A stretch of 64,000 bases of DNA from Hormiphora californensis. Lineage: Eukaryota > Animalia > Ctenophora. The notes beneath the pieces are model-generated. The model was not told the DNA's origin. It ran no database searches and saw only the letters and a program-made list of their open reading frames with translations. The position numbers were made by a program, and so were the translations under genes. The DNA is taken from positions 372,001 through 436,000 of the forward strand of contig CM035355.1 of assembly GCA_020137815.1 (NCBI GenBank). Direction: 5' to 3'. Position 1 is the first letter of the stretch. Every line of letters begins with the position of its first letter. Positions 9,813 through 63,502 of this stretch are shown here, piece after piece.

Positions 9813-9956
9813 GTTTCTTGTCTAATTATTTATTTGCTGTGAAGTGATTTGTAAGTTATTGAAAAGTTTTTTGCTCAAGTTGTTGTTAGATTTAACTGTT
9901 ATCACACTGTTAATTGTTACCTTACCTTCTCTTTAATCCCTCATTATTATCCCAGA

Positions 9957-10592
9957 ATGGACACTGTCTGTGTATCAGCGTCCTGTATCTCTACAACTAT
10001 CATTGCCTTTCTCGCCTACAAACTATCCCAAAAACCAAAACCTTCCCCTCCTCAACATCCCTCTACGGAGGCACTGTTCTTCCCTGATCGAGGTATCCAA
10101 TGTCCCTACTACAAAACCTCACGAGGCTGCCTCAACACCTCCTGTGAGTACCTCCATGAACCTCTCTCCCTGCCGCGGTTGTGCGAGATTCTCCGCTCAG
10201 CACAACACACCCTTGACGTGTGTATGTTTGTTATATCATCCCCTGAACTCATGAGTCTCCTCGTGCAGATCAAGGAGAGGGGTGTTAGGGTGAGATGTAT
10301 CTGTAATGCAGAGGATATTGACGGACTTCAGCCTATCAGATCAGCAGGGATCCCTTTCCGGTTTGACCGATCTGACTACCTCATGCACAACAAGTTTGTC
10401 GTGATTGATTCCCGGGCGGTAACCACGGGATCGTACAACTTTTCTCGGGGAAACGGGAACAGAGAGAATGTGATTATCAGTTATACTAGGAATGTTATTG
10501 ATGCGTACCAGGCTGAGTTTGAGGAAATGTGGCAGTTGTACAGTGGGAACGATTTTAGATATAACTGTTTTAAAGAGAAAGTGTACAGGTAG
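9957..10592 (+). CDS. PLD6: Mitochondrial cardiolipin hydrolase / zucchini piRNA endonuclease (211 aa)
   Basis: N-terminal TM anchor, EALFFP, CCCH zinc wing (CPYYKTSRGCLNTSCEYLH), LDVCMFVIS, single HKD motif MHNKFVVID...TTGSYNFS...NRENVII. Confidence 0.93.
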   Translation: MDTVCVSASCISTTIIAFLAYKLSQKPKPSPPQHPSTEALFFPDRGIQCPYYKTSRGCLNTSCEYLHEPLSLPRLCEILRSAQHTLDVCMFVISSPELMSLLVQIKERGVRVRCICNAEDIDGLQPIRSAGIPFRFDRSDYLMHNKFVVIDSRAVTTGSYNFSRGNGNRENVIISYTRNVIDAYQAEFEEMWQLYSGNDFRYNCFKEKVYR

Positions 10593-11376: not shown

Positions 11377-11660
11377 AGAGAGAGAGATGAGAGAGAGATG
11401 GAAGAGAGGAGAAGAGAGCGATAGAGGAGAAGAGAGAGAGAGAGAGCGAGAGAGAGAGAGAGAGAGAGCGAGCGAGAGAGCGAGAGGAGCGCGAGAGAGA
11501 GAGCAGAGAGCATAGAGCGAGAGAGCGCTCGATAGCGCTCGCTCTCGCGATCTAGCGAGATTAGAGGAGATATCGACTCTTCTCGTCTCGCGGCAGCTCA
11601 TCTCGCTTCAGCGCTCTAGCCTCCGAGATATCGCTATATCTGCTAGATCTCTCTCTCTCA
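10930..11660. repeat. Degenerate (AG)n microsatellite
   Basis: Direct inspection. Confidence 0.9.
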
Positions 11661-12026
11661 CTCCATACTTTGAAAGATAGGGTGCCCGGGCACGCTTACG
11701 AAATATCCAATTCCAATTCTAATTCGCGGTTCGCCCCTGACAATGCAAATGCATGCACCGTCTCTCACACGGTTTATTGGAGATGCTATTTTATTGCTAG
11801 CTACACAGAATCCAAGATAACTATTATTTCGTGACGGAACTAATTATATCAATTAAAGGAACAATGATAATATGAATTGTACAAATAGCAAAAAAGTGTT
11901 ATTTATCCGAAATTTTCTTAGATCAAAATGGCTTGTTTCATGCTTCACATAATGTTTATCTGTGTAGTTTTTATGGAAAACCCGTCCCAAGAGTTTAAGT
12001 CCCACAGTTAGACACACAGTCCTTTT

Positions 12027-15000
12027 TCAACCCTCCTCTGGGCTTGTATTCGGCGAGTCGCTTGTTGGCAGATTTACAGTTGAAAGTTTCCTAACAGAAG
12101 TTCGAAGGTTTCTAGTGTAAGTGTTTGATGGTGTGTTGATGGTGGTTGACATCATGGGGAATGATGCAGTTGTGCTCGAGCCATTCACTCTCTTCCTCCA
12201 GTTCTTGATCAACTCCTTGTTCAGAGCTCCATGCATTATCAGGATCATGATACCCTGTGAGGGTGGATCAGTGTCAAGCGACTCAAGACGGTGAGGGTGG
12301 ATCAGTTAATAGCTGTAGGGGGAGGAGTGGGTATCGAAGGGGGAGGAATGGGTATCGAAGACACTTCACACTTTGATACCCTGTGAGGGTGGATCAGTGT
12401 CAAGAGACTCAAGACGGTGAGGGTGGATCAGTTAATAGCTGTAGGGGGAGTATCGAAGACACTTCACACTTCGCGCGCCGGCAAGGCAGGGCTAACTTCG
12501 TTACCAATGGGAGGAGTGGGTTATCATTCAATTGAAAAATGGTACATGCTAATAACACTGAACTGTCCCGTGGTCTACCAGATCAACAGTAAAGAAATAA
12601 CATTACATACCTGTGGGGCAACTGAGAGAATGTAAAGCCATCGAAGAGCCGCATTCAGATAGGTATAATTGGTTGTTGCAAGAACAAAGAAACCAAAAAT
12701 CCAACCAGTCCCGAGAATCGCACTAAGAGCAAACGCCTTTTGGAGGCGCAGCTGAGGAGGAAATTTCATGGTTTCAAGTCCTCTAAATATATAAAGTCGG
12801 ATTTTTTGAAGTTGTCACCCCCCTCTTCGTGCGCGGGATGTTTTTGCGTGTCACATCACATGTTAACGTGTGGTGTGCGCGTCAAAATTGATAAATTTCA
12901 TATGCGCGGTCATTTTGGGGTGACAACTTCAAAAAATCCGACTTTAGTAGGGTTTTAAGGGTACACCTCGGCAAAATTTTTGTCGAGTGCCCGCTTAGCT
13001 CTCCATATGGGGTTGTAGGGCATACCAAGCCGACCTCAAATATGCAATTTTAGCCCTTAACTCGAATTCATATTTTTGCTACAGCCCCTCAAAGTTTGAC
13101 CCTAAAAACCGGTTTTTAAGGTCCCTAAATTTTATTTTTAGGGCTAGAAAGCTGAAAATTTAGGGATTCATAGAGGATACCAAGGTGTATAGCTCAAATA
13201 GAAATTTTTTGAAATGGAGCTCAATTTTTTGTCTGAGACTATTTTACTTTTTTTGACTTTGAGGCCATATTTGGACATGTTCCTATGGACCGTTAAGGCT
13301 CAAAATTGGATATTTGGTGCTCCTAACAATTGTCAAAGTAGCCACAAATTTTCAGGAGGTCCGAATTTAAAATGTGGCTTACAGGTTTCTTTTTGTAAAG
13401 CACATATTTTAGGAAAACTTAAAATGGCTATATCTCAAAAACGGTAGGTCCTAGCGATCTAATTTTGTGCTAAATCGATTCAGCGGGTCCGATTTTGGGG
13501 GGGTCGTCTCATAGACATTTTGCTCTAAGTCTAACCGTTTTTTCAGAAATCGTATTTTAAGATTTGAACATGTTTAGCAGAAATAGGTAAGATTAGCTCT
13601 AGCTAGAAGCATTTCTGCTAAACATGTACAAACCTTAAAATACGATTTCTGAAAAAACGGTTAGACTTAGAGCAAAATGTCTATGAGACGACCCCCCCAA
13701 AATCGGACCCGCTGAATCGATTTAGCACAAAATTAGATCGCTAGGACCTACCGTTTTTGAGATATAGCCATTTTAAGTTTTCTTAAAATATGTGCTTTAC
13801 AAAAAGAAACCTGTAGGCCACATTTTAAATTCGGACCTCCTGAAAATTTGTGGCTACTTTGACAATTGTTAGGAGCACCAAATATCCAATTTGAGCCTTA
13901 ACGGTCCATAGGAACATGTCCAAATATGGCCTCAAAGTCAAAAAAAGTAAAATAGTCTCAGACAAAAAATTGAGCTCCATTTCAAAAAATTTCTGTTTGA
14001 GCTATACACCTTGGTATCCTCTATGAATCCCTAAATTTTCAGCTTTCTAGCCCTAAAAATAAAATTTAGGGACCTTAAAAATCGGTTTTTAGGGTCAAAC
14101 TTTGAGGGGCTGTAGCAAAAATATGAATTCGAGTTAAGGGCTAAAATTGCATATTTGAGGTCGGCTTGGTATGCCCTACAACCCCATATGGAGAGCTAAG
14201 CGGGCACTCGACAAAAATTTTGCCGAGGTGTACCCTTAATTCTTAATTTATTCTGCTTACCGCCATGGCCGTCAGTTGGTTATCCTCTGTTGCGTTCAGC
14301 TGTACCGGGGCTTTCTTTGTTTTCATTGTAATCCAAAGGACATTAAGAAGGACCCATTGGGTAAAGATGAGTCCTACTGCCAGGGGAGCCCAGAATGTAA
14401 CAGCGGCCGCTGGAAACTGGACAAAACACCTGGAGAGAGTTACTGTTAGTGCAGGGCAGGAAGAACCGACCAAAACAAGTAAACAACCAATCAAAACTCG
14501 TTATTTAGGTCATGTGACTGGTTATCAGCCAATCAGGGACCAGTATTTCCTGATTCGGTCGGTTCCTGGTGCAGGGATGAACTTGAGGTGCAGTGATCTA
14601 CTTACGTTTTTCCGTTTGCATACTCCATGCGCTTCCAGGCGACACCAATTATTGGGAAAACAAGGGGAACTCCCCAGGCGCAAGCATTCCATTTCTGGAA
14701 GTATTTACTGGTATAGTGCGGAAAGATTATCATAAGGCTGGACCGCATGTTCCAAGCCTCTAGAACCATCCAAGCCAACTGACACAACCAGAGATAGTTG
14801 GTCAGCAGTGCAACCTGGGATGTTATTTCTTGTGAAGACTATTTTGCAACTACAATATATATGTTGATTGATCAGTTTGACACGTACTGTGAGACACCCA
14901 GGGCTAACGTCATTGTCGTCAGGTGAGGTGAACCGGTCCATTATTAGGAAGATTATGATGGCTAGGACGAGAGAGCAAGCCAACATTAAGTTCAACCGGA

Positions 15001-23200: not shown

Positions 23201-26200
23201 TTCAAATCTCTTGGGATCTTTAGAAAGAGGGGATCAAGCTGTTTCCAAAGAGCTATAAAGTTTCAATATATATTAAAAAGGCAGATGCTTGGTAGTGATA
23301 GTCTTGAGTCAACATTTGCACGTGCAGGTTTAGAGGTGGAGTGGGAGGGGGATAGGGGACATCAGGGGTTTGCAAGGGGGGGGTGGGGGTTATCATGGTG
23401 ACAAATGGTGACAAATGGTGACTCATCTGACCATTTAGGGTATGTCACCATCACCATTTGTCACCATTTATCTCCATTTGTTACCATTTGTCTCCATTTG
23501 TCTCCATTTTTTGACGAAATATGCGGATTTCGGCAGAATTTCTTTAAAATTTTTAAAGAAATTTGATAAAAATTTTTAATTTCTTTAGACCGATATATTT
23601 GTTTATAAGTTGTTAACATGGTCATTCCGGATCGGCTAGTAGTGTTTTGGACCGCTAAAACTTCCCGAAAGTCACGTTGAGGGTGTACCTCCCTCGCACA
23701 ACACATAAAAGCGCAATTAACTACCTGTGACCCCTTAATTACATCCAATCGACTTGAAACTTGGTAGAAGTGTCCCCCAGTGTCCCATAACATCATATTA
23801 TGTCCCATAACATCATATTATGGCTGTAGGGAACTCCAGACAGAATGGTGACAAATGGTGACTTGTCTCAAAATTTTGGTCATGTCACCATCACCATTTG
23901 TCACCATATGTCACCATTTGTCACCATTTGTCACCATGAATCATGATTACCCCCCCTTTGCACGTGCAAATTGAGTTCTTGATCAATATTGAAACTTTAT
24001 TGCTCGATCCCATCTTTCTAAAGATCCCAGGAAATTTGAAATTGGTTAAGAAATGGCCGAGTTATGACTTAAAACGTCTCAAAATCGAGCAAAAATTGAT
24101 TTTTCACCACATGAATCCCTTTGCATCAGCTGTTGTTGCTATTGAGAACGGTGGGTCGGCAGGGAGGTCATTCGGCAGGGAGGGTGGGATATGGGGGTAT
24201 AATGTCCTACGTGCCGACGAGATTGGGATGAGATCGCCGTCGGCACGTAGGACATTATACCCCTATTTTCTGCCCTCCCTGCCGACGGACCTCCCTACCG
24301 ATCGGCAGGGAGGGCCGTCGGCAGGGAGGACATTTTACCCCTCCTTTTACCCTCTGTACCGACGATCGGCAGGGAGGACATTTTACCCCTCCTTTTACCC
24401 TCTGTACCGACGATCGGCAGGGAGGACATTTTACCCCTCCTTTTGCCCTCTGTACCGACGATCGGCAAGTAGGGCCGTCGGCAGGGAGGACATTTATCCC
24501 TCCTTTTCACCCTCACTACCGACGATCGGCAGGGAGGACATTTACCCCTCCTTTTCACCCTCTGTGCCGACGAAACCATAACCCAAACTTAGCCCAAACC
24601 ATCGCCCTTATAACCATCACCCTAACCACCACCCTAACCACCGCCCTAACCACCACCCTAACCCTAACCCTAACCACCGCCCTAACCCTAACCCTAACCC
24701 TAACCCTAACCCTAACCCTAACCCTAACCCTAACCCTAACCCTAACCCTAAACCTTACCCTAACGATACTCAGAGGAACAATATACAGTGAACTCTTCGT
24801 ATTTGGCCTGCCGGCCAAATTCTCGAGCTCACAGAAGGAGTGAAACGCCCTCCCTACCGATCGTCGGTACAGAGGGTAAAAGGAGGGGTGAAATATCCTC
24901 CCTGCCGATCGTCGGTACAGAGGGTGAATAGGAGGGGTAAATGTCCTCCCTGCCGAATACTCTCTCGGAGTGAGTTTTCGGCAGGGAGGGCGGAATATAG
25001 GGGTCAAATGTCCTACGTGCCGACGGCGATCTCATCCCAATCTCGTCGGCACGTAGGACATTATACCCCTATATCCCGCCCTCCCTGCCGAATGACCTCC
25101 CTGCCGACCCGTCGGCAGGGAGGTCCGTCGGCAGGGAGGGTGGGTACCCTCTAGTTACTCAAAAACTCAATGTGCACGTGCACGTCCCTACCATCGCCAG
25201 TTGAACCCCTATCAGCCCATCTGAGCTGCTGCACGTGCAAATCTTGAGTCATCACTACCAAGCATCTGCCTTTTTTAATATAGACTAGCGCACCCATTGG
25301 GTGCGCCTCAAGTAATGTATTTTTGATAACCCACCCGGCTTCGCCGGGTGGTTCTTTTCGCCCCTTTCAACGTCAATAACACGGTTGCCATGGCAACTGA
25401 ATTGGTAACTATGGTGACTGGCATGTTAAAAGTTTTCGAAAATATTAACAAACTTCCACCGGAAGTTCAAAAAGTGTGAGCAACAGCTTTACAGCTTTGG
25501 TCACATGAAGTGTTTTATGAAGGAGCAGTCTGTCGCTTAGATACCGCTGAACGAACGACCATCACTTCGACGTTCATCTTCAAATTATAATAGAGACTAG
25601 CGCACCCACTGGGTGCGCCTCAAGTAAGGGCTGTTGACAACCGGCTCCGGGTGGCTATCTGGGGCGCTCTTTATTTACAATCTTGACGCCAAAATTATGG
25701 TTGCCATGGCAACTGTAACGGTAACTATGGGGACTGAACCCGGACTGAATTGTTAAAATTCATCCGAAAATATTCACAAACAACAACTTTACAGCTTTGG
25801 TCACATAAAGTTTTTTATGAAGGAGCAGACTGTAGTTTAGCAACGCACTGAACGAACGGCCACGACGTTCATCTCCAAATTATAATAGAGATTACCAATA
25901 AACTATTACCAATAATTACCAAACAACTATTGACTAATTCCCCCCTGTGTAGCAATGGAGATGGAGGACTGACCCCGTTACTAAAGAGCAGTATCCCGGA
26001 TATCAGACTAAACATGGATAATGGAGGAACCCGACCAAATAAGGAATCCTTTGATCACATTTGCAAGGTAACAATTGGAACAAACACATACAGTCAACCA
26101 TCATGCGAGATACCGGCTTACTCGCGGTAACTGTTTTAGCCTGGTAATTATAAAATATTCCAATTTGAACACCCTGTACCTAGAATACTATATGTTAATT

Positions 26201-29200
26201 AACATGACGAATTTGGGGGCGATACGGTTAGTTGATATCCGGTAAATCAAGCTTTGACTGTTATTATAAACTTGACAGAGAAAAAGGATCGGTTGATTGT
26301 TTATCTCTATTATAATTTGGAGATGAACGTCGTCGAAGTCGAAGTCGTTCATTCAGCGGTATCTACGCGACAGTGCTCCTTCATAAAACATTTTATGTGC
26401 ACAAAGCTGTAAAGCTGTTGCTCACACTTTTGGAACTTCCACTGGAAGTTTGTTGATATTTTCGAATGAATTTTAACATGCCAGTCGTTTTATTGACGTT
26501 GAAAGGGGCGAAAAGTACCGCCCGGCGCAGCCGGGTGGGTTGTCAAAAAGCCCTTACTTGAGGCGCACCCGATGGGTGCGCTAGTGTTACATATATTGAA
26601 TATATACCTGATACTGCCACGGCAGAGCTGTTAGTCAAGAATTCTTGTTCACCAAATACAAAGACACATGTGTAACTCCCGCTAAGGGATGCATCTAGAT
26701 AGCCAATGACCAGTCTGGCGGTAGACTCTGATGTCGTGTATGAGAGACTGGTATAGATGCTTGTATCAACATCACCCCCTTCAAATAGCCACGTTGCAGA
26801 CACATCCACTCCATCGGGTGCACGAGAGGCAACTGCAGTCAGGGTGAGAGAGTCTCCCTCGGACAGCCAGCCAAGATCATCCGCGGGCGAGGATATTATC
26901 ACTGCAGGGGGCCGAATATGGGTTAAATTTGATTTGGTTTCTGATGCTGCATCACTGTATAGCGTGCACAAAAACACAGTCATACACGGTGTTCATTTTG
27001 GATCTTAACAAGCGTTGGGCTTCACCCAGAAAAAAGTTTGTAAGATTAGCTTATGAAACTTCATACTTGGACTATTCTTAGGGGAAACTCTAACTGAATG
27101 GCATCCCATTAATGGGATCCCATCAACAGTAAAACTCTAACTGATAATGGACCACAGTGATGGTTCTTTCCCTGTATTCTCTCTGTGTGCACGCCCGCGC
27201 CCGGGCATGCCCAATGTACTGCAGTGCCTACAGAGAGAATACAGAGAAAGAACCATCACTGTGGTCCATTATCAGTTAGAGTTTTACTGTTGATGGGATC
27301 CCATTAATGGGATGCCATTCAGTTAGAGTTTCCCCTAACACCAGGAACCTTGAATGAGGGTATAGACTATAGAATAGTCCAAGTATGAAGTTTCATAAGC
27401 TAATCTTGCAAACTTTTTCCTGGGTGAATCCCCCAGTGTCAAAGTTCGGGTATCCCGGGATCCTGGCTGCTAGTCAATTTTTTCGCCAAGATATCTAGTC
27501 AATTTTCTAAAATGGGAAATTATAGTGAGACTATGGTATATTTACTGTTGTAGCACATTTAAAAAAACAATGTAAATAGGGATGACAAACTTCAAATCAC
27601 CATCTATGTATTTTCTCTAATTTACAGAACATTGTTTTCTCTGATTTTCACCAATCACCATCTCCATTCTTACATTTTCCATCAGTGGTGTAGTGGTTAC
27701 ACCATGGACTCTCACCCCGATCGTCTGGGTTCGAATCCGGATGGGGTGATTTGGCTTACTTTTTACTTTCATGATTTTTCTCTCTCTATATTCATTCTAG
27801 TGTGTTGTAACATGACACTGATATCATCACAATATCATAGAAGAACGCTCGTCAGTCGTCAGTGCATATATGTGTGAGATCTCTCATTGATGCCAGAATC
27901 TCTAGTCGGTAAAGAGGGAGCCTAGGAGGTATCCTGTGCTAGTCATGGATCCCGCCACGCATGATAAGCTAATTGCTGAAAAGTCATGCTTTGTAGACTA
28001 GAGATCCAAACATTTTATACAGCGCTGAATAGTGAAACTAGCACAAAGGGTTGTGGTCGAGTGGTACAAATCTCGCCTGCCAAGCGGGCGACGCGGGTTC
28101 GATCCCCGGGATTGACAAACATCCTAGACGTTTTTTTTAAATTTTTTAAAAGTGTAACCCTTTGTTACTAGGGTAAACCGGGGCAATTCGAACAACTGGG
28201 GCAATTCGAACATAGTACTGCCCGTCTCTCACCTAGTTAAGCTATCATAATGACGTCATCCTATCTCCAGAAGAAAACTGCTCGTTCGAGCCTGCCCGTT
28301 ACCACTAAATAGGCTCTAGATCCGGTTTAAGTTGGTCAATTTCCGATTTGAAAAAACCAGCTGAAAGCTAATAATATCAGCTTTCAGATGGTATAAAAAT
28401 TATTTAAATATTCGCATGTTTTCATTCCAAATTCTGGTAAATTAAGATTACCGGGGCAATTCGAACAACCGGGGCAATTCGAACATGGGCAATTTGGTTA
28501 ACACACCGGGGCAATTTGGTTAACTCCCGGGCCAATGATGTGCAGTTCTTTGTACCACGTGATCACGCGTGATACCGGGGCAATTCGAACAAGAACGACC
28601 AGCGTGTAGATTGCGTGTAGATTACATTGTTCGAATTGCCCCCACCTCTAACAACACCAGGCGGGAATCTTCTTCTGGTGTTGTGAGGACGTTCACGTGA
28701 CTCCCACGTGACGAAATAAAGCACTCCTATTGGTGTTGTCCGAATTGCCCCGGTACCATTTTTTCCGACCAAAATTTTTAAATTAGTTATTTAGTTAAGT
28801 AAATGATGGTCCCTAGAGTTGAAATTTATCTTATTTGAAAGATAAAATAATGAACTTTAATCCTATATAATTTTTTTCATTGTATCTTTTTTTAAATGGG
28901 AGTGAGAACCGATTAAGTAAAAAGTTAACCATTTTGCCCCGGTTTACCCTATACAATAATCTAGTTATTTAATCAATTTGTTGAAACTTAATTATTAGAA
29001 GAGAAATTTTTTTTCCTTCCTAGTCAAATTTTGTAAAAAAAATCACGACCCTAGTCGGATTGAGATACTTTGACACTGGGGTGAATCCCAACGCTTGTAA
29101 AGATCCAAAATTAACACCCTGTATCATGTAGTACCTAGGTGATACGCTGGAACATGGCGGGATGCAATGAACTATAAGCAGTCACAAATCTTGGTGATAG

Positions 29201-38972: not shown

Positions 38973-40904
38973 TCAAAGTTCTACAATGATATCTCTCTCC
39001 TCAATGTCTTGTGATCCACTCTCATTATCCGGCAGGTAATCATCGGGGAACTTTGGTAGGGATGGAGTCACATTTTCAGATGTTGTATTCTCGTGTAAAG
39101 TACCCTCATCATCACCCTCGTCCTGTGAAGAGTTTCTCCGCACCACTATCGTCTGTGGAATGTCCTCATCCTCATCTACAGCTCCGTCGTCCGGCAGCGT
39201 CTCACCGTCATCAATAGTGTTATCTCGCTCACACGGTGGCCTCCCTTTGCTGCTATCACTACTGCTACTACTGCTACTACTGCTGGAAACACTGACTTTC
39301 TTGGCAAGTTTAATATTAACTGCTGGTACTGCAGGTTTTGGGGAGGTGGTGAACTTGGCCATACTCTCATCGGCACGACGGAGAATTTTCTGTGAAACCT
39401 CAATCAGTGTTATGTCCAAATCGACAAACAAGTCAAATCCATTGTTGAGTCGCGTTGACACGCGAATGAGATACTTGCAGCTAATAAACTGACTCTTACT
39501 GACCGATTGCAGATCGGCCGATGTGAGAGTAAACGGTAAAACAGTTTCAAACTTCTTTTCTTTTCCTGCATCTGCATCTTTGTACTTTTCAATTTGTAAC
39601 ACGTGCCTCATGTTGTTCTCGTGGAAGTTTCCATCCTTCAGACTGATATACCGTCCTAGGATGACCGAAATTACTCCAATTTCATCCGCTGCCCCCTCGC
39701 TTAAGCTACATCGAATGTTGACGGTATCTCCAAACGAGTAACAAGATCGGTCGGTCTCGGCAGTGAGAGTAACCGAGCCCCGGGGCAGACAAGTGAAGTA
39801 GTACAGCTTGATACGCTCAGATCTGGGTTGACATTGATAGTTATACGGGGGTGCCTCGCACAACACAATGAAATCCTTTGCGATGATCTGGTTTTCATGG
39901 AGATCAACAAGGAGGAAAGCGTACTCAATGCACGCTCGGACATCCTCCTCAGGAGAGACAAACCGAAATGAGGAGGGGAGGTCAGGTGGGAACTGGTAGG
40001 TAAATTTGAAGACAAAGTCTGATTGTCCTTCATCACTGTGCACAAGGTCCACATACTCCGTGAAGAATGTTTGGATTTCACTGTGTCCATCCCATCCTAC
40101 CGACTGGCTCCCCTCACAAATGAGGGACAGGGTCAACTGTGCAACGTCAAAGTGCTCCTTCATCAACAAAACCGTCCCTCGGACAACCTTGGAAGGGTAA
40201 ACCAGTGTATCGGCTAGACTGATCCTCACAGTTTTCTCCTTCTCCTCCTCGACCACTACAGTGCTCTCTCCATCAAGGGTGTCATCGTCATCAACTCGTG
40301 TGTAATCAGGTTCCTCGTGATGGAACTCTCTCTGTGAGGTCTGCACAATAGAACCCTCGTCCAAGTTTTCTAAAGCAGATGGAAGGACGTCCTCGGAGAA
40401 GGTCGGATCCTCGAGTTGATCCCCCTTTTCAGGAGGGTCAACATTCTCTGAGATACTATCCCTGGGAAGCATATCAAATGCTATCACTGCCTCAGGAGCA
40501 TAGCTTGATATGAATAACTTTGCATCGTCCATACCAGCGTCCACATCCTCAGAGGGGGCACAGGAGAACTTCCTTGAGGACATGTCACCATAAATATCTT
40601 CCTCCTCCTCCTCATCGTTCTTCTTTGGGGTAGACGACATGTCACCGTAAATATCATCTGCTTCCTCATCCTCCTCTTTCTCCATCTTGTTAACTGTGCT
40701 ATAAATATCATCCTCTTCCTCTAGATCAGGTTGAGCTGCCCTATCATCTTCATCGTATTTCTCAGTGCTATCATCACCATTCACCCCGTTTGAAAGTCCG
40801 TTCATCGTTCCGTACAAATCCTCCGGATGGGTGTCATGGTGACCATTACCATGGCAACCCTCCTGGAGTTTCATCGCTCCATTATTATAGTCCGCTACAT
40901 CCAT
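38973..40904 (-). CDS. Arrestin-domain-containing protein (alpha-arrestin-like) with long acidic N- and C-terminal extensions, 643 aa, single coding exon
   Basis: Arrestin_N (VYPSKVVRGTV...FKFTYQFPPDLPSSF...IEY) and Arrestin_C (GSVTLTAETDRSCYSFGDTVNI...SQFISCKYLIRV...LDITL). Confidence 0.85.
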   Translation of the reverse strand: MDVADYNNGAMKLQEGCHGNGHHDTHPEDLYGTMNGLSNGVNGDDSTEKYDEDDRAAQPDLEEEDDIYSTVNKMEKEEDEEADDIYGDMSSTPKKNDEEEEEDIYGDMSSRKFSCAPSEDVDAGMDDAKLFISSYAPEAVIAFDMLPRDSISENVDPPEKGDQLEDPTFSEDVLPSALENLDEGSIVQTSQREFHHEEPDYTRVDDDDTLDGESTVVVEEEKEKTVRISLADTLVYPSKVVRGTVLLMKEHFDVAQLTLSLICEGSQSVGWDGHSEIQTFFTEYVDLVHSDEGQSDFVFKFTYQFPPDLPSSFRFVSPEEDVRACIEYAFLLVDLHENQIIAKDFIVLCEAPPYNYQCQPRSERIKLYYFTCLPRGSVTLTAETDRSCYSFGDTVNIRCSLSEGAADEIGVISVILGRYISLKDGNFHENNMRHVLQIEKYKDADAGKEKKFETVLPFTLTSADLQSVSKSQFISCKYLIRVSTRLNNGFDLFVDLDITLIEVSQKILRRADESMAKFTTSPKPAVPAVNIKLAKKVSVSSSSSSSSSSDSSKGRPPCERDNTIDDGETLPDDGAVDEDEDIPQTIVVRRNSSQDEGDDEGTLHENTTSENVTPSLPKFPDDYLPDNESGSQDIEERDIIVEL

Positions 40905-41698
40905 TGAAATAAAGGTCGGGCACCTCTCCTGTGGATCTATCTTGGTAGAAGAAAGGGTGGAGTCATGGTTGTAGCTTTGTTGATCTGGTCAGCTGCAATG
41001 TAGAGGTGTGGTTAGAAGATATAAAACAACGCAATATCATGAACATATGCAATACAGGTAAGTTAGAACTTGGCAAAGTGAGATACTGAATTCTGTTTGA
41101 AAACGCTTAGTACTTGAATGCAGTAGTAATGTGGTCATTATTGTATGGCCTGTTTTAAATCACTAAAGCGAGAATTAGCAGACATACTAAATAGCAACGG
41201 TCAGAGGAAAGTAAGCGAGTCATCGGTCATAATGTACACATCTATAGAGGGAGGGAAGTGAGACAAACTATAGAGCAAGGGGAGATGGAGGAAGGAGAGG
41301 TTTAGTTGGAGAGAGAGTGTGTAGCCCACAAATAGAGAGCTCGATCTAAGCGGGCCTCGATGCAACACAGACTCTTTTGCTCTCTTAGTCTCTTACACGT
41401 GCACTGTATGGTTTATAGCGAGAGATACAAAGGGAGAGAGAGAGAGAGAGAGATACAAAGGGAGAAAGAGGGAGAGAGAGAGAGAGGAGAGAGAGAATAG
41501 AGAGAAAGAGAGAGAGAGAGAGATGTAGTAGAGGAGAGAGATATGAGAGAGATCCATCTCTCGCTCTACTTATCTCTCTATCGTCGCTCTCCTCTCTCTC
41601 TCTCTCTCGCTCTCCTTTCTCTCTCTTCCCTCTCTCTCTCCACCCTCTCGTTCGCCTCTTAGAGGGTACATCTCTGTAGAAGAGGAGTGAAAATAAGG

Positions 41699-43046
41699 TA
41701 TACACGGCGTGCCTGGTGAAATTTTAACACGACCTAGCATGCGACGGGAAACCACCACTTGTACGTGGTAGCTGAGGGTCTACAGAATGGCGCTACGGTG
41801 CGGGAAAAAACATTCCATTCCCTAAAATCTTTTTTTTACTTTTATTTGATTTGGGTCAAAATTGGCTATATTAAACGTGGTCCCGAAAAATCCATAATGA
41901 CTTAGCACACGAAATATGTCACCCCTACCTATTTTTGCACGTAGAATCGATTGCCGTTGAAGTCGAATCTCTAAAATGACTGTAAAATGGTCAAAAGTTG
42001 ATTTTTTACCATTTTTTGGAGGTTTTTGGCCCCTAAACCATTGAAAACGTTGAGATAGGAATTTGAAACTAGTGCCAATCGTTAAAATGGTCATTTTTCT
42101 ACCAAGAACCAAGTTTTCGTGTATATCCGATTTATGGTTAGATTTGGGCAAATTGTTGAAATCTGCCAACTAGGAGAACCGTAACTTGATTTTCTTGTTT
42201 TTTGGATTTTGGCATTTTCGACAAACTTCTGATTGAAATGGTCAATCGGGACCATGCTTAAGTTGTTTATGGGACAATTTTCGACTAAAATCCAAGATTT
42301 CATACCAATCCAATAACAGATCGTTGATTTATAGAAAATTTAAGTAGGCAAAACGGTGAAAATAAGCAAGAAAAGTTGTCATTTTGACCGTTTTGCCTAC
42401 TTAAATTTTCTATAAATCAACGATCTGTTATTGGATTGGTATGAAATCTTGGATTTTAGTCGAAAATTGTCCCATAAACAACTTAAGCATGGTCCCGATT
42501 GACCATTTCAATCAGAAGTTTGTCGAAAATGCCAAAATCCAAAAAACAAGAAAATCAAGTTACGGTTCTCCTAGTTGGCAGATTTCAACAATTTGCCCAA
42601 ATCTAACTATAAATCGGATATACACGAAAACTTGGTTCTTGGTAGAAAAATGACCATTTTAACGATTGGCACTAGTTTCAAATTCCTATCTCAACGTTTT
42701 CAATGGTTTAGGGGCCAAAAACCTCCAAAAAATGGTAAAAAATCAACTTTTGACCATTTTACAGTCATTTTAGAGATTCGACTTCAACGGCAATCGATTC
42801 TACGTGCAAAAATAGGTAGGGGTGACATATTTCGTGTGCTAAGTCATTATGGATTTTTCGGGACCACGTTTAATATAGCCAATTTTGACCCAAATCAAAT
42901 AAAAGTAAAAAAAAAGATTTTAGGGAATGGAATGTTTTTTCCCGCACCGTAGCGCCATTCTGTAGACCCTCAGCTACCACGTACAAGTGGTGGTTTCCCG
43001 TCGCATGCTAGGTCGTGTTAAAATTTCACCAGGCACGCCGTGTATA
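41699..43046. mobile_element. 1.35-kb near-perfect foldback element (TA-flanked)
   Basis: TATACACGGCGTGCCTGGTGAAATTTTAAC...GTTAAAATTTCACCAGGCACGCCGTGTATA, centre ~42372. It generates mirror-image ORFs. Confidence 0.9.
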
Positions 43047-46850: not shown

Positions 46851-46950
46851 NNNNNNNNNNNNNNNNNNNNNNNNNNNNNNNNNNNNNNNNNNNNNNNNNN
46901 NNNNNNNNNNNNNNNNNNNNNNNNNNNNNNNNNNNNNNNNNNNNNNNNNN
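46851..46950. other. Scaffold gap (100 N)
   Basis: Run of N. Confidence 1.
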
Positions 46951-52400: not shown

Positions 52401-53450
52401 TCTACTTTTCTTTAAACGTGCAAATATTTTGGAAACCATAGGACCCAAAAATTTAACAGACGACCCCCCCGCCTAGGAGGGGCCACGATCACTGGGGTCA
52501 ACGGGTGGTTTGGGGTTGTCTGGGAAAAGGTGAAACGGTGTGTGGGGGGGTGGTTGGGGTGTAAGAGGAAAAAGGTTCCTTTCCCGCGGAAAGCGCATTT
52601 CTTGGAAATCTCTCTCCCCCTTTGGAGGGAACGGAAAATTTTCCCCCCGATGTTTGTGGACCAGATGGGAAAACCTTGGGGTCTCTGGGGCCAAAAACTT
52701 AACTTTTCCGAAGGGAAATGGAGGAAAAGTTGGGCTGTCCCACGGAAAAATTTGGGTTACCATGTTTTATATTAAAACAGGGGGGAACAATTATTATCGG
52801 GTTTTATTAAAGTAAATCGTCTTGCTTGGCCCGGTTTTTTGGTTTCTCCAAAAACATAAACTTTGGCGGAAATTTTTTCCTCCCCTGGGGGAACAAGGGA
52901 AAAGGGGAAAACTCGGCACAATTTCCCCCCCCCTAAAAGACCTTAAAGTGGGAACGCTTATAAGAATCTTGGAAGGCACCTTTTTTCCTAAAGGAAATGC
53001 CCTTTAAAAAACTGGGGTTTTAGGACAAAAAGGGGACTATGATTGCCTTAAAAGTAAAAACACCCCCAAAAACAGGTCAACGCCAAAATTTTAAATTGAA
53101 CGAGGGGAACTAAAACAATTTTTTGCCTGCTATTTAATCTCCCCCTGGTTAAAGGCGTCCCCAACGTTGATACCTTTAAACCCCGAAAAACAACTCCGTT
53201 GGTTCTTTGGGAAAAATGGGTGTGGGGAACCCGGTGGGTTTTTTTGTGATTTGGGGGTTCAACAGTGACCCCTTTCACATTTTTTAAAATCTGGTATCCT
53301 TTTTTCAAATGTGAATTTAGGCTTTTAAATATTTAAGGTTTTAATGGGACCTTAAACCCCCGTTTTAAACCATTTTTGTTTTCCTTATTTTCTTTTTTTA
53401 AAAACCGAAAGTTTGTTTTATTTTTTTCAGGTTCCCTCGGACTGTCCCCT
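49500..53450 (+). mobile_element. Heavily indel-corrupted non-LTR retrotransposon (CR1/L2-like ORF2 remnants)
   Basis: CGTGGAGTGCCCCAGGGG (GVPQG RT motif) at ~52360 and a GDF-like endonuclease remnant at ~50664. No intact frame; homopolymers are inflated. Confidence 0.5.
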
Positions 53451-54252
53451 CCCATATTTTGACATGTTTCCTGGTTCGGGTTAACGCGGTTTAAAATTAT
53501 TTTTTTAATTTTTGAATTTAATTCCCCCAAAAACCCCATTGTTTTCCATTTGGGTTTTTTAAAAACCCGGTTTCCGTGGGGGTCATAAATTAACTTGAAT
53601 AACCCTGTTTTAAATTCAAATTGGCCTCAGACGGGTTTTCCCCCAGTGGGAAAGGGGTAAAAAACAGCAAAAATTTTTTATTATTTAAAAAAATTTTCCT
53701 TTTTACGAAACACCCCTTTTTATATATCACCCCCTACCCTTTAAAATTTCGGGTTTCATAAAAAGTATGAAAACTTGTTAAAACCTATCTAAAAGTTGTT
53801 ACTTTTTTTTTTTTGAACCAGGGTGAATTGAAAAAAACGACCGGTAGCGATTCCACCACATGTTTAACAACAGAGGTGTGTCGCATAACTCCTTATATGG
53901 GCATAAAATTCCAATCTTGTGGAATTTATTCTGACTCGACTATAGCTTAGTTATCAATGAATCCATCTCTAATACCTTTGGAATGGCATTTTGCACATTT
54001 CTGAAGCTTTTTGTAGCCAAATTCCAGCATCTTCATAGTTTTCCAAAAACAAAAACAGTGTTAATGGCCAAAATATCGAAAAATTCCGGTATGTAATGGT
54101 AGCTCAGACAATTTCCTCGGCATGTTCAAAAAATTAGAACTTTCTGTTTTTTAGTTTGGACACAGGAATTTTTTTCCCGCCGTACAAGCGATATTATTAC
54201 CCCTCCGTGAGCTAGCGCAGAGGGGGAATTTCATTACCAAATATTTCCCCAG

Positions 54253-57152
54253 GTTTACTGCAGGGAATCCTAACAGGGATCAGAGGACTCAGCAATGGGT
54301 TTGGTCCAGCTACCTTTGGGCTCCTGTTCTACATCTTCCATGTCCAGTTGGATGAGGCAACAGAGGGAGAGGGAATAGACAATCCTTACACTGGGGTATG
54401 TAGTATGTCATGGGAGGGGGAGAGGGAATAGACAATCCTTACACTGGGGTATGTAGTATGTCATGGGAGAGGGAATAGACAATCCTTACACTGGGGTATG
54501 TAGTATGTCATGGGAGGGGGAGAGGGAATAGACAATCCTTACACTGGGGTATGTAGTATGTCATGGGAGGGGGAGAGGGAATAGACAATCCTTACACTGG
54601 GGTATGTAGTATGTCATGGGAGGGGGAGAGGGAATAGACAATCCTTACACTGGGGTATGTAGTATGTCATGGGAGGGGGAGAGGGAATAGACAATCCTTA
54701 CACTGGGGTATGTAGTATGTCATGGGAGGGGGAGAGGGAATAGACAATTCTTACACTGGGGTATGTAGTATGTCATGGGAGGGGGAGAGGGAATAGACAA
54801 TCCTTACACTGGGGTATGTAGTATGTCATGGGAGGGGGAGAGGGAATAGACAATCCTTACACTGGGGTATGTAGTATGTCATGGGAGGGGGAGAGGGAAT
54901 AGACAATCCTTACACTGGGGTATGTAGTATGTCATGGGAGGGGGAGAGGGAATAGACAATCCTTACACTGGGGTATGTAGTATGTCATGGGAGGGGGAGA
55001 GGGAATAGACAATCCTTACACTGGGGTATGTAGTATGTCATGGGAGGGGGAGAGGGAATAGACAATCCTTACACTGGGGTATGTAGTATGTCATGGGAGG
55101 GGGAGAGGGAATAGACAATCCTTACACTGGGGTATGTAGTATGTCATGGGAGGGGGAGAGGGAATAGACAATCCTTACACTGGGGTATGTAGTATGTCAT
55201 GGGAGGGGGAGAGGGAATAGACAATCCTTACACTGGGGTATGTAGTATGTCATGGGAGGGCACAGTGGTAATTTTGAGGGGGGTAGGGTGACATAGGGTA
55301 GATCAACACATGTTTGGATCACATGGGGTAGTTCCTAGGGTAAACCGATGCAAAAAATACGTTTCCACATAGTTTCAAAGCTCTAGGTTGAAAGGTTACG
55401 GAGATATCGGCGAATCATTATGGTGATAGGAAATTTTTTTTTCAAAGCATAAATTTAGGTAGTCACCCCGGACTATTTTTTGACGAGAAATCGATTGCTG
55501 ATAAAATTAAGACGATTTACCTAAAGGAAAGGGGTCAAAACGCGTTTTTTCGTCTTTTTTCGTCGTTATTTTGCAAAAAAGTGGTCAAGATGATGAGATA
55601 GAAAGCAGAAAACATTTTAAAATGAAATTTTGGACATTTTTTGGCTAGATTTGAAAATTTCATCTATTTTGATTAATTTTTGTTCTATTTATGAAGACTA
55701 AGAACTGCCAGATTTTAAGATTTCTTTCAAAATTCAGTTACTAAGATGTTTTGCATGTTATCCCACACTTGTTTTGGACGAGAAATCGATTGCTGATAAA
55801 ATTATGAGCCTGAATAAGAAGTGAAAAGGCGAAAAACGCTTTTTTGTTATTTTTTTCATATTTTGGTTAAATATGGATTTTTTCACAAAATAGCAAATAG
55901 CCGTATGATGCAATGGTTTTAGAGCTCCGATATTGATGGCAATCGATTTAACGTGCAAAAATAGGTCGGAAAACCTGTCAAGTCAGGCCTCAGCTACTCA
56001 TTTATAAAAAATCATTTTTTAAAAGTGAAAAACACGCTTCCTTCAACGCTATTTTACCCAATTTTCGGATCGTTTCGGAGAAGTGCCCCATACACCAAAA
56101 GATAGATATTTGTCAGGCCTTTCAAATAAAACTGGTCTCCCGTGACGACTCATGACGACTTTGTGTATGACATAGCCTTATGTTTCGTTTTTGGCTGAAA
56201 AATGACTTTCCGAAAGAAATTTTTCAAAAATTTCCAAAAATTTTGAAATTTCACCCAATTGCCCTTCCAAGACAACATACATTGAAGAATATGTATAATT
56301 TTCGTCTCGTCCTAAAACCCTGCAAGTAAAATGGCAGTCAAAAAAGACAGTCAAAAATGACAGTCAAAAATGACGAAAAACTCAAATAACGCATCGATTC
56401 TGAAGCAATCAATCGGTGGGTCGCATGGCATACAACTCTATGGACTAATATCTATCGGATAGAACCATTTTTAGAAAAAAAAAATTTTCCTATGTCCACC
56501 TAAAAACCACTGTGGAGGGGGAGAGGGAATAGACAATCCTTACACTGGGGTATGTAGTATGTCATGGGAGGGGGAGAGGGAATAGACAATCCTTACACTG
56601 GGGTATGTAGTATGTCATGGGAGGGGGAGAGGGAATAGACAATCCTTACACTGGGGTATGTAGTATGTCATGGGAGGGGGAGAGGGAATAGACAATCCTT
56701 ACACATGGGGTATGTTTTTAGTAGCATAGCTAATGGGTGTCCCCCTGAAGATGGGTGACGAAGGAGTGATCCTGGAGATTCGTTTACCCGACTGGGGTGG
56801 TACTGGTATAGATATAACCCGGGGTTTTAGCTCAATAAAATAAAAGAGTAGAAGAGAAATAGAAGCTACATTTTGATTTCATATCAAGTCTATCTAACTA
56901 AATGCTAACCTCCTCTCTCTCTCTCTCCTACAGATATCACTGCCTGGTGGCCCCTTCATTTTTGGAGCCCTCCTCGCTTTCCTGGCTCTGTTAATCACCC
57001 TCTCATTACCCGACAAGGCAGCTATAAAGCCCAAGATTGATCACCGCAAGAAAACGGACTCTGAGCCAAGTGAAGATGAAGGAGGTGGTGTGGGGTCAGG
57101 GTTTCACCACCATCATGATCATAGCCCACTACTTCCCGAATCTGTTCCTTGA
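54253..57152 (+). CDS. MFSD14: Last two exons of MFSD14/HIAT1 (54253-54395, 56934-57152)
   Basis: GLLQGILTGIRGLSNGFGPATFGLLFYIFHV...|ISLPGGPFIFGALLAFLALLITLSLP...SPLLPESVP*; phases compatible. Confidence 0.9.
54366..56714 (+). repeat. 53-bp minisatellite (~17 + ~4 copies, split by a transposon) containing the MFSD14 exon end and donor site
   Basis: Unit GGGAATAGACAATCCTTACACTGGG|GTATGTAGTATGTCATGGGAGGGGGAGA. Confidence 0.95.
55261..56514. mobile_element. Non-autonomous Transib/RAG-like DNA transposon with asymmetric RSS-like ends
   Basis: GAGGG|CACAGTG...CACTGTG|GAGGG. The 5-bp TSD is verified against the host repeat unit. Heptamer-23-ACATAGGGT on the left, heptamer-12-ACATAGGAA on the right. 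Confidence 0.88.

Positions 57153-58194: not shown

Positions 58195-63502
<5,308 letters not shown>

Follow-up and report, generated by a model that had tools for sequence, protein, structure and literature searches.

The segment at 55261-56514 is a genuine insert, very probably a non-autonomous ctenophore Transib that has likely been moved in trans by a Transib transposase. It lies in a 64,000-nucleotide stretch of Hormiphora californensis DNA (hereafter the window), in which a Transib-type element had been predicted; a 5-bp GC-rich target site duplication (TSD) and ends in register with published ctenophore Transibs' terminal inverted repeats (TIRs) are in agreement with that assignment. Since the two unequal ends agree with these published ones, we regard the element as an ordinary new Transib member and not as a new V(D)J-like signal.

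Structure of the element

The principal features of the element are given below (coordinates, strand, description).

55261..56514, plus: element, very probably a non-autonomous DNA transposon; 1,254 bp, 35% GC, no long ORF
55261..55268, plus: left terminus CACAGTGG (heptamer and one G)
56507..56514, minus: right terminus CACAGTGG
55277..55283, plus: A and then six G at positions 17-23 in the long end; by-eye count in register with the 5' TIRs of PbaTransib_0868 and MleTransib_3931
55284..55297, plus: left end, second conserved block (positions 24-37), beginning 16 bp past the heptamer
56489..56502, minus: right end, second conserved block (positions 13-26), beginning 5 bp past the heptamer; identity with the left block 12/14
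55462..55512, no strand assigned: internal repeat, with a direct copy at 55757-55807 (84%) and an inverted copy at 55939-55969
56328..56374, no strand assigned: 13-bp unit in 3.6 tandem copies, some 140-190 bp inwards from the right end

The heptamer CACAGTG occupies 55261-55267 and, on the minus strand, 56508-56514, and the terminal inverted repeat without mismatch is 8 bp long (CACAGTGG). Read inwards, the left end consists of the heptamer, 23 nt (55268-55290) and ACATAGGGT, and the right end of the heptamer, 12 nt (56496-56507) and ACATAGGAA; the predicted heptamers and 23- and 12-nt spacers are thus confirmed from the sequence. Judged by the likeness of the ends, the plus strand would correspond to the direction set by the 5' ends of ctenophore Transibs in print. 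In the 3' regions of the latter, as far as these are given in the source, a word of the GGCAGTCAAA/GACTGCCA type is seen by eye at a distance similar to that of the 13-bp repeats.

The longest stop-to-stop frame within the element is 74 aa, and Pfam returned no match for the 8 frames scanned out of 19 element frames of at least 35 aa. With no ORF above 74 aa, the RAG1L and RAG2L genes that lie between the TIRs of RAGL/ProtoRAG transposons are absent. An internal motif at 55421-55442 that resembles the right end might have been the real counterpart of the block, but this reading was discarded, since other copies differ there and the published TIRs favor the terminal block. The whole window holds 18 CACAGTG words, and a cursory look revealed no paired ends among them besides those of the element; a short inverted-repeat element at 27145-27271 carries CACAGTG inside its arms and not at their tips.

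Insertion into a tandem array

The element interrupts an array of 53-bp units, the parts of which are as follows.

54365..55260, plus: left part of the host 53-bp tandem array, 17 units, each with an exon end and GT donor
55256..55260, plus: left TSD copy, GAGGG
56515..56519, plus: right TSD copy, GAGGG
56515..56715, plus: right part of the host 53-bp tandem array, about 3.8 units

The array (54365-56715), in which 17 of 21 units are exact, consists of a tandemly amplified exon end with its GT donor and so offers about 21 possible 5' splice sites, and every extra unit would extend or shift the reading frame. Exons at 54253-54395 and 56934-57152 flank it. Because each unit contains the exon end with its donor and the following exon begins near 56934, the element likely sits in an intron. 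The two flanking exons look like parts of a likely MFS transporter gene of the MFSD14/HIAT1 type; Pfam is blank for the host gene, and Atlas gives a weak MFS lead (0.86).

Among nine overlaps tried (0-8 bp, with both ends assumed to be symmetric), the array becomes perfect again only when the element is removed together with 5 bp (GAGGG). The TSD, for which there is one pair, had been called unambiguous: the 5-bp GAGGG duplication in the 53-bp array stands, but its unambiguity holds only with both ends symmetric, and a 6-bp reading is formally possible if the last G is given to the flank. At this single site the target is GC-rich, with 67% GC over 15 bp and 51% over 35 bp compared with 43% for the window. 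GC-rich 5-bp TSDs are a defining trait of Transib in the available text of Kapitonov and Jurka 2005 (PMC1131882).

The target duplicates of Chapaev are 4 bp long. If the 5-bp duplication had been misread in the G-rich target, the element could come from a different superfamily with CAC ends (Chapaev, EnSpm or a related one), a reading that, besides the formally possible 6-bp TSD, draws on the CA..TG termini common to the rival superfamilies (PMC12730594 and PMC4411706, in the parts available) and on the CMCT elements, which combine such termini with TSDs of 2-5 bp (PMC12730594, same part). It may also draw on the interior of the element, about 180 bp of which are 60% similar to an otherwise unrelated-looking foldback at 41699-43046 with TATA-CAC ends, a similarity that counts against the Transib reading. 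However, the array is not restored by 3 or 4 bp, so the duplication of the Chapaev/EnSpm (CMC) type is not what is found; EnSpm TSDs are given as 3 bp in the accessible part of PMC12730594, and the end architecture fits the Transibs published in PMC9435367, as far as that source goes. We therefore consider membership in another superfamily very unlikely.

The foldback itself, 1,348 bp long and 98.8% self-complementary, has TATA-CACGGCGTG ends and may represent either a palindromic MITE or an artefact of the reads. The 60% similarity involves about 180 bp of each arm and positions 202-381 of the element, and the word GGGTGACATA is common to the foldback and the left end of the element.

End architecture and the 12/23 framing

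The longest exact word common to both ends, GACATAGG, starts at position 30 on the left and at position 19 on the right, and the likeness of the ends extends to the 14-bp blocks listed above. An offset of 11 bp, or about one helical turn, between the ends had been predicted and was found; the extent claimed for the shared block was not, the actual block measuring 14 bp with 12 identical. An exact shared word of at least 8 was obtained in 725 of 20,000 dinucleotide shuffles (91 of them with an offset of 10-12), and a 14-mer with at least 12 matches in 28 of 5,000 (5 with an offset of 10-12). Given these results, the shared block is genuine.

The spacer lengths depend on where the second motif is taken to begin. 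The figures 23 and 12 arise because its start was set at ACA, and they become 22 and 11 if it is placed at GACATAGG; the 11-bp difference between the ends is the sole spacing figure inherent to the sequence. The RSS nonamer score is 4/9 at both ends, and a search for a better register at 11-13 and 22-24 bp found none. Nonamer position 6, one of two positions termed essential in PMC1131882 (available part), is a G. Thus, the CACAGTG heptamer of RSS12/RSS23 is present, but neither at 12 nor at 23 bp is there an A-rich nonamer that conserves positions 5 and 6, and the proposal of a strict or new V(D)J 12/23 RSS geometry is not sustained, given this nonamer and the dependence of both numbers on the ACA start.

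Compared with vertebrate RSS12/RSS23, the element is alike in the heptamer and in the 11-bp difference between the ends, but it lacks a ACAAAAACC-like nonamer; moreover, its CACAGTG ends are transposon ends, whereas vertebrate RSSs are gene-segment signals under a pairing rule. RSS12/RSS23-like end pairs in Transibs are described in the available text of PMC1131882 for Transib5, Transib2_AG and TransibN1-3_AG, both autonomous and non-autonomous, and a hypothesis has been built on such pairs (PMC8355894, in the part available). These elements are comparable to ours in their ends and in their 5-bp GC-rich TSDs; however, their consensus heptamer is CACAATG and their A-rich nonamer keeps RSS positions 5-6, whereas the element has CACAGTG and a second block that is not A-rich (PMC1131882, same part).

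The exact heptamer at both ends, the 11-bp offset and ACA at 12 and 23 bp would also be expected of a non-autonomous derivative of a RAG1L + RAG2L transposon with true RSS12/RSS23 ends, a nonamer-binding domain and a 12/23 rule, and 5-bp TSDs occur in RAGL transposons as well, some of them with asymmetric TIRs (PMC10462144 and PMC9435367, in the parts available). PflRAGL-A and AanRAGL resemble the element in having a 5-bp TSD and bipartite TIRs that are asymmetric by 10 and 9 bp, but they encode RAG1L and RAG2L, which the element does not (same sources), and PflRAGL-A has an AT-rich nonamer-like motif that is absent from the element (PMC10462144, available part). Against a RAGL origin stand the nonamer match of four in nine at both ends with G at the position termed essential (PMC1131882, available part), the start of the conserved block at 16/5 and not at 23/12, the register with single-gene ctenophore Transibs in the accessible part of PMC9435367, and the classification of the ctenophore proteins of Tao et al. 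as Transib (PMC9435367). Such an origin is, in our assessment, extremely unlikely.

Kinship with ctenophore Transibs

Tao et al. 2022 (PMC9435367) reported six Transib proteins from ctenophores and described the TIRs of their whole Subgroup I as asymmetric. The published TIRs were compared by eye with the ends of the element, using a few elements from the supplement of that paper, as far as available, that were picked after viewing; the following comparisons refer to this material. The termini of PbaTransib_0868 and PbaTransib_8175 from Pleurobrachia bachei and of MleTransib_3931 and MleTransib_2823 from Mnemiopsis leidyi are CACAGTGG, as in the element. TAGG lies at 34 in the 5' end and 24 in the 3' end of both PbaTransib_0868 and MleTransib_3931, compared with 34/23 in the element, and at 24 in the 3' end of PbaTransib_8175; GACAT is found at 30/20 in MleTransib_2823 and at 30/19 in the element. 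The long 5' ends of PbaTransib_0868 and MleTransib_3931 carry an A and a G-run at 17-23 and TAGG at 34-37, the same as the element, and the short 3' ends of these Transibs share with it TAGG followed by an A-rich run. PbaTransib_0868 also has a 5-bp TSD.

Aligned by eye and ungapped, the left end matches the 5' TIR of PbaTransib_0868 at 26/40 positions, including A17 and G18-23. Beyond the heptamer 19/33 positions match (binomial P between 7e-5 and 7e-3 at match rates of 0.25-0.35), and the left end agrees at 15/24 of the positions common to PbaTransib_0868 and MleTransib_3931 (P 1e-4 to 5e-3); since the comparison was made by eye with elements chosen post hoc, these P values are indicative only.

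The published ctenophore Transibs are autonomous with an offset of 10, whereas the element lacks an ORF and has an offset of 11, because its short end is one base shorter. The middle of the block differs as well, positions 28-33 being unlike PbaTransib_0868, and with these differences no published relative is proven to be the mobilizer. The 12/23 geometry is also not new: ctenophore relatives have been published with a 10-bp offset, and 12/23-like Transib ends have been in print since 2005. The 12/23 framing is partly arbitrary, and the one-turn asymmetry that underlies it is already published, ctenophores included. No account of this particular non-autonomous family was found in the open literature searched; it may be catalogued in Repbase or in subscription journals.

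Other copies, age and assembly quality

Among public contigs, parts of the element are carried by 20 of the 22 runs listed. Five of these, all from organism A, contain at least half of its words, and the word share in organism B runs is 0.10-0.12. Four runs with 30, 79, 59 and 514 contigs were compared in detail, among them X8, a run with a small word share; the remaining runs with small shares give no evidence. The flanks differ from those of the window copy at both ends (55257-55261; 56514-56517) in runs X1, X5 and X6, from which it follows that the element family is dispersed. The proposed check on the spacings of other copies found them mostly unchanged in the contigs of the four runs, in which flanks are unpaired and merged. 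For the left spacer, constancy is a result of this four-run comparison, in which one X1 piece among those listed covers the whole left end (55261-55316) without a gap, one minor X5 contig (depth 90 of 2,704) has four added G in the spacer and one X1 contig has a variant left terminus; the right terminus is reached by 6 of the 32 contig pieces listed, and none of nine indel rows falls in the right spacer.

At 10 or more sites (40 variant rows listed) all four runs differ from the window copy at full depth, and at 5 or more further sites it differs from all organism A runs that cover them. This private difference of about 1% points to some age or to assembly error. A recent jump had been suggested from the homogeneity of the array; arrays homogenize by themselves, so that homogeneity cannot date the insert, and together with the 10 sites at which the window copy differs from the four runs this weakens the suggestion. 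A joint that skips 1259 in X1 and X5 was considered as an empty allele and discarded, as any uninterrupted array unit maps likewise.

The same 10 sites, the error-rich appearance by eye of the sequence 1.5-2.5 kb upstream, and the fact that the array-element junction is in none of the contigs listed would also fit a real element whose placement or exact spacings are an assembly product, arising from repeat collapse or homopolymer error. A clean 5-bp duplication in the array register is, however, hard to produce by misassembly, both spacings are reproduced gap-free in contigs, and two independent published elements carry a G-run in the same register (PMC9435367, in the part available). The G-run in particular, which had been named as a potential assembly error, is free of gaps in the X1 contig and is present in identical form, A included, in those two elements. 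An assembly product is accordingly most improbable, and the reading as a genuine Transib insert is retained.

Genomic context

The host had been predicted to be an early-branching animal, in agreement with a window protein that shares 97% identity with one listed for Pleurobrachia bachei in EukProt. It is encoded by the ORF 9855-10589 of a single-ORF PLD-like (PLDc_2) gene at 9855-10592, and among its next-best matches, at about 53%, is a cluster to which a Bolinopsis microptera protein belongs. These matches make a ctenophore near Pleurobrachia the very likely host. Two further frames lie on the minus strand: an open frame of 671 aa at 38973-40988, with an Arrestin_C domain and acidic tails, and a coiled-coil ORF of 358 aa at 61605-62681, which has no Pfam match and presumably resembles a LINE ORF1-type protein. 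Other repeats comprise an inverted-repeat element at 24153-25110 around a telomere-like CCCTAA tract (24574-24764), and an interspersed repeat of about 1 kb in two inverted copies (180-1213 and 11648-12806; 84-85%). The region 52800-53900 is homopolymer-rich and looks like unpolished long-read sequence, and there is a 100-N gap at 46851-46950.

Proposed mobilization

Taken together, the Transib traits found are a 5-bp TSD (one insertion), a GC-rich target (one site), CAC-starting heptamers at both ends, a bipartite TIR in register with known members, and copies dispersed at different sites. By analogy with Transib/RAG chemistry, a Transib transposase supplied in trans would cut and paste the element: a transposase dimer would nick at the CAC end and leave hairpins on the flanks, the ends would be joined, across a 5-bp stagger, to a target rich in GC, and repair would fill the stagger to give the 5-bp TSD. 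The anatomy of the ends suggests that the 14-bp block is a putative second binding site. Its distance from the heptamer grows by one helical turn, from 5 bp at one end to 16 bp at the other, and it would thereby lie on the same face of the helix and could allow the ends to be distinguished. For HzTransib, nick-hairpin cleavage and invariably 5-bp TSDs are described in the available text of PMC4840297, according to which it depended on RAG2 to handle 12/23 RSS pairs, and the need for asymmetry disappeared when RAG1 acted alone.

A scan of viral contigs for the end pattern gave no matches, and the 12 matches in metagenome contigs, none of which has BLAST similarity to the element or the window, are read as chance. 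When a short catalytic motif of ctenophore Transibs was scanned for in degenerate form, one viral match turned up, with phage-like ORFs, and two bacterial matches in unrelated frames; PF12940 is absent from the two bacterial genomes concerned and likewise from 14 controls, so this search carries no information. Hence, neither a transposase with these exact ends nor a RAG1L/RAG2L partner was found in the viral, metagenome and prokaryote pattern scans.

Implications

It is conceivable, albeit unlikely, that the element represents a still-active ctenophore Transib subfamily that has moved to an exact 11-bp difference between its ends and whose single-subunit transposase enforces pairing of a long with a short end without RAG2. 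If true, a working 12/23-type rule would have existed in the earliest-branching animals before RAG2 capture. The value of the element as a substrate for long/short discrimination by a Transib transposase alone is modest: it offers two natural ends, offset by 11 bp, at a clean site, and PbaTransib_0868 would serve equally well or better for such a test because its enzyme comes along. With the element, the ctenophore Transibs, whose asymmetric ends are already in print, gain one non-autonomous family.
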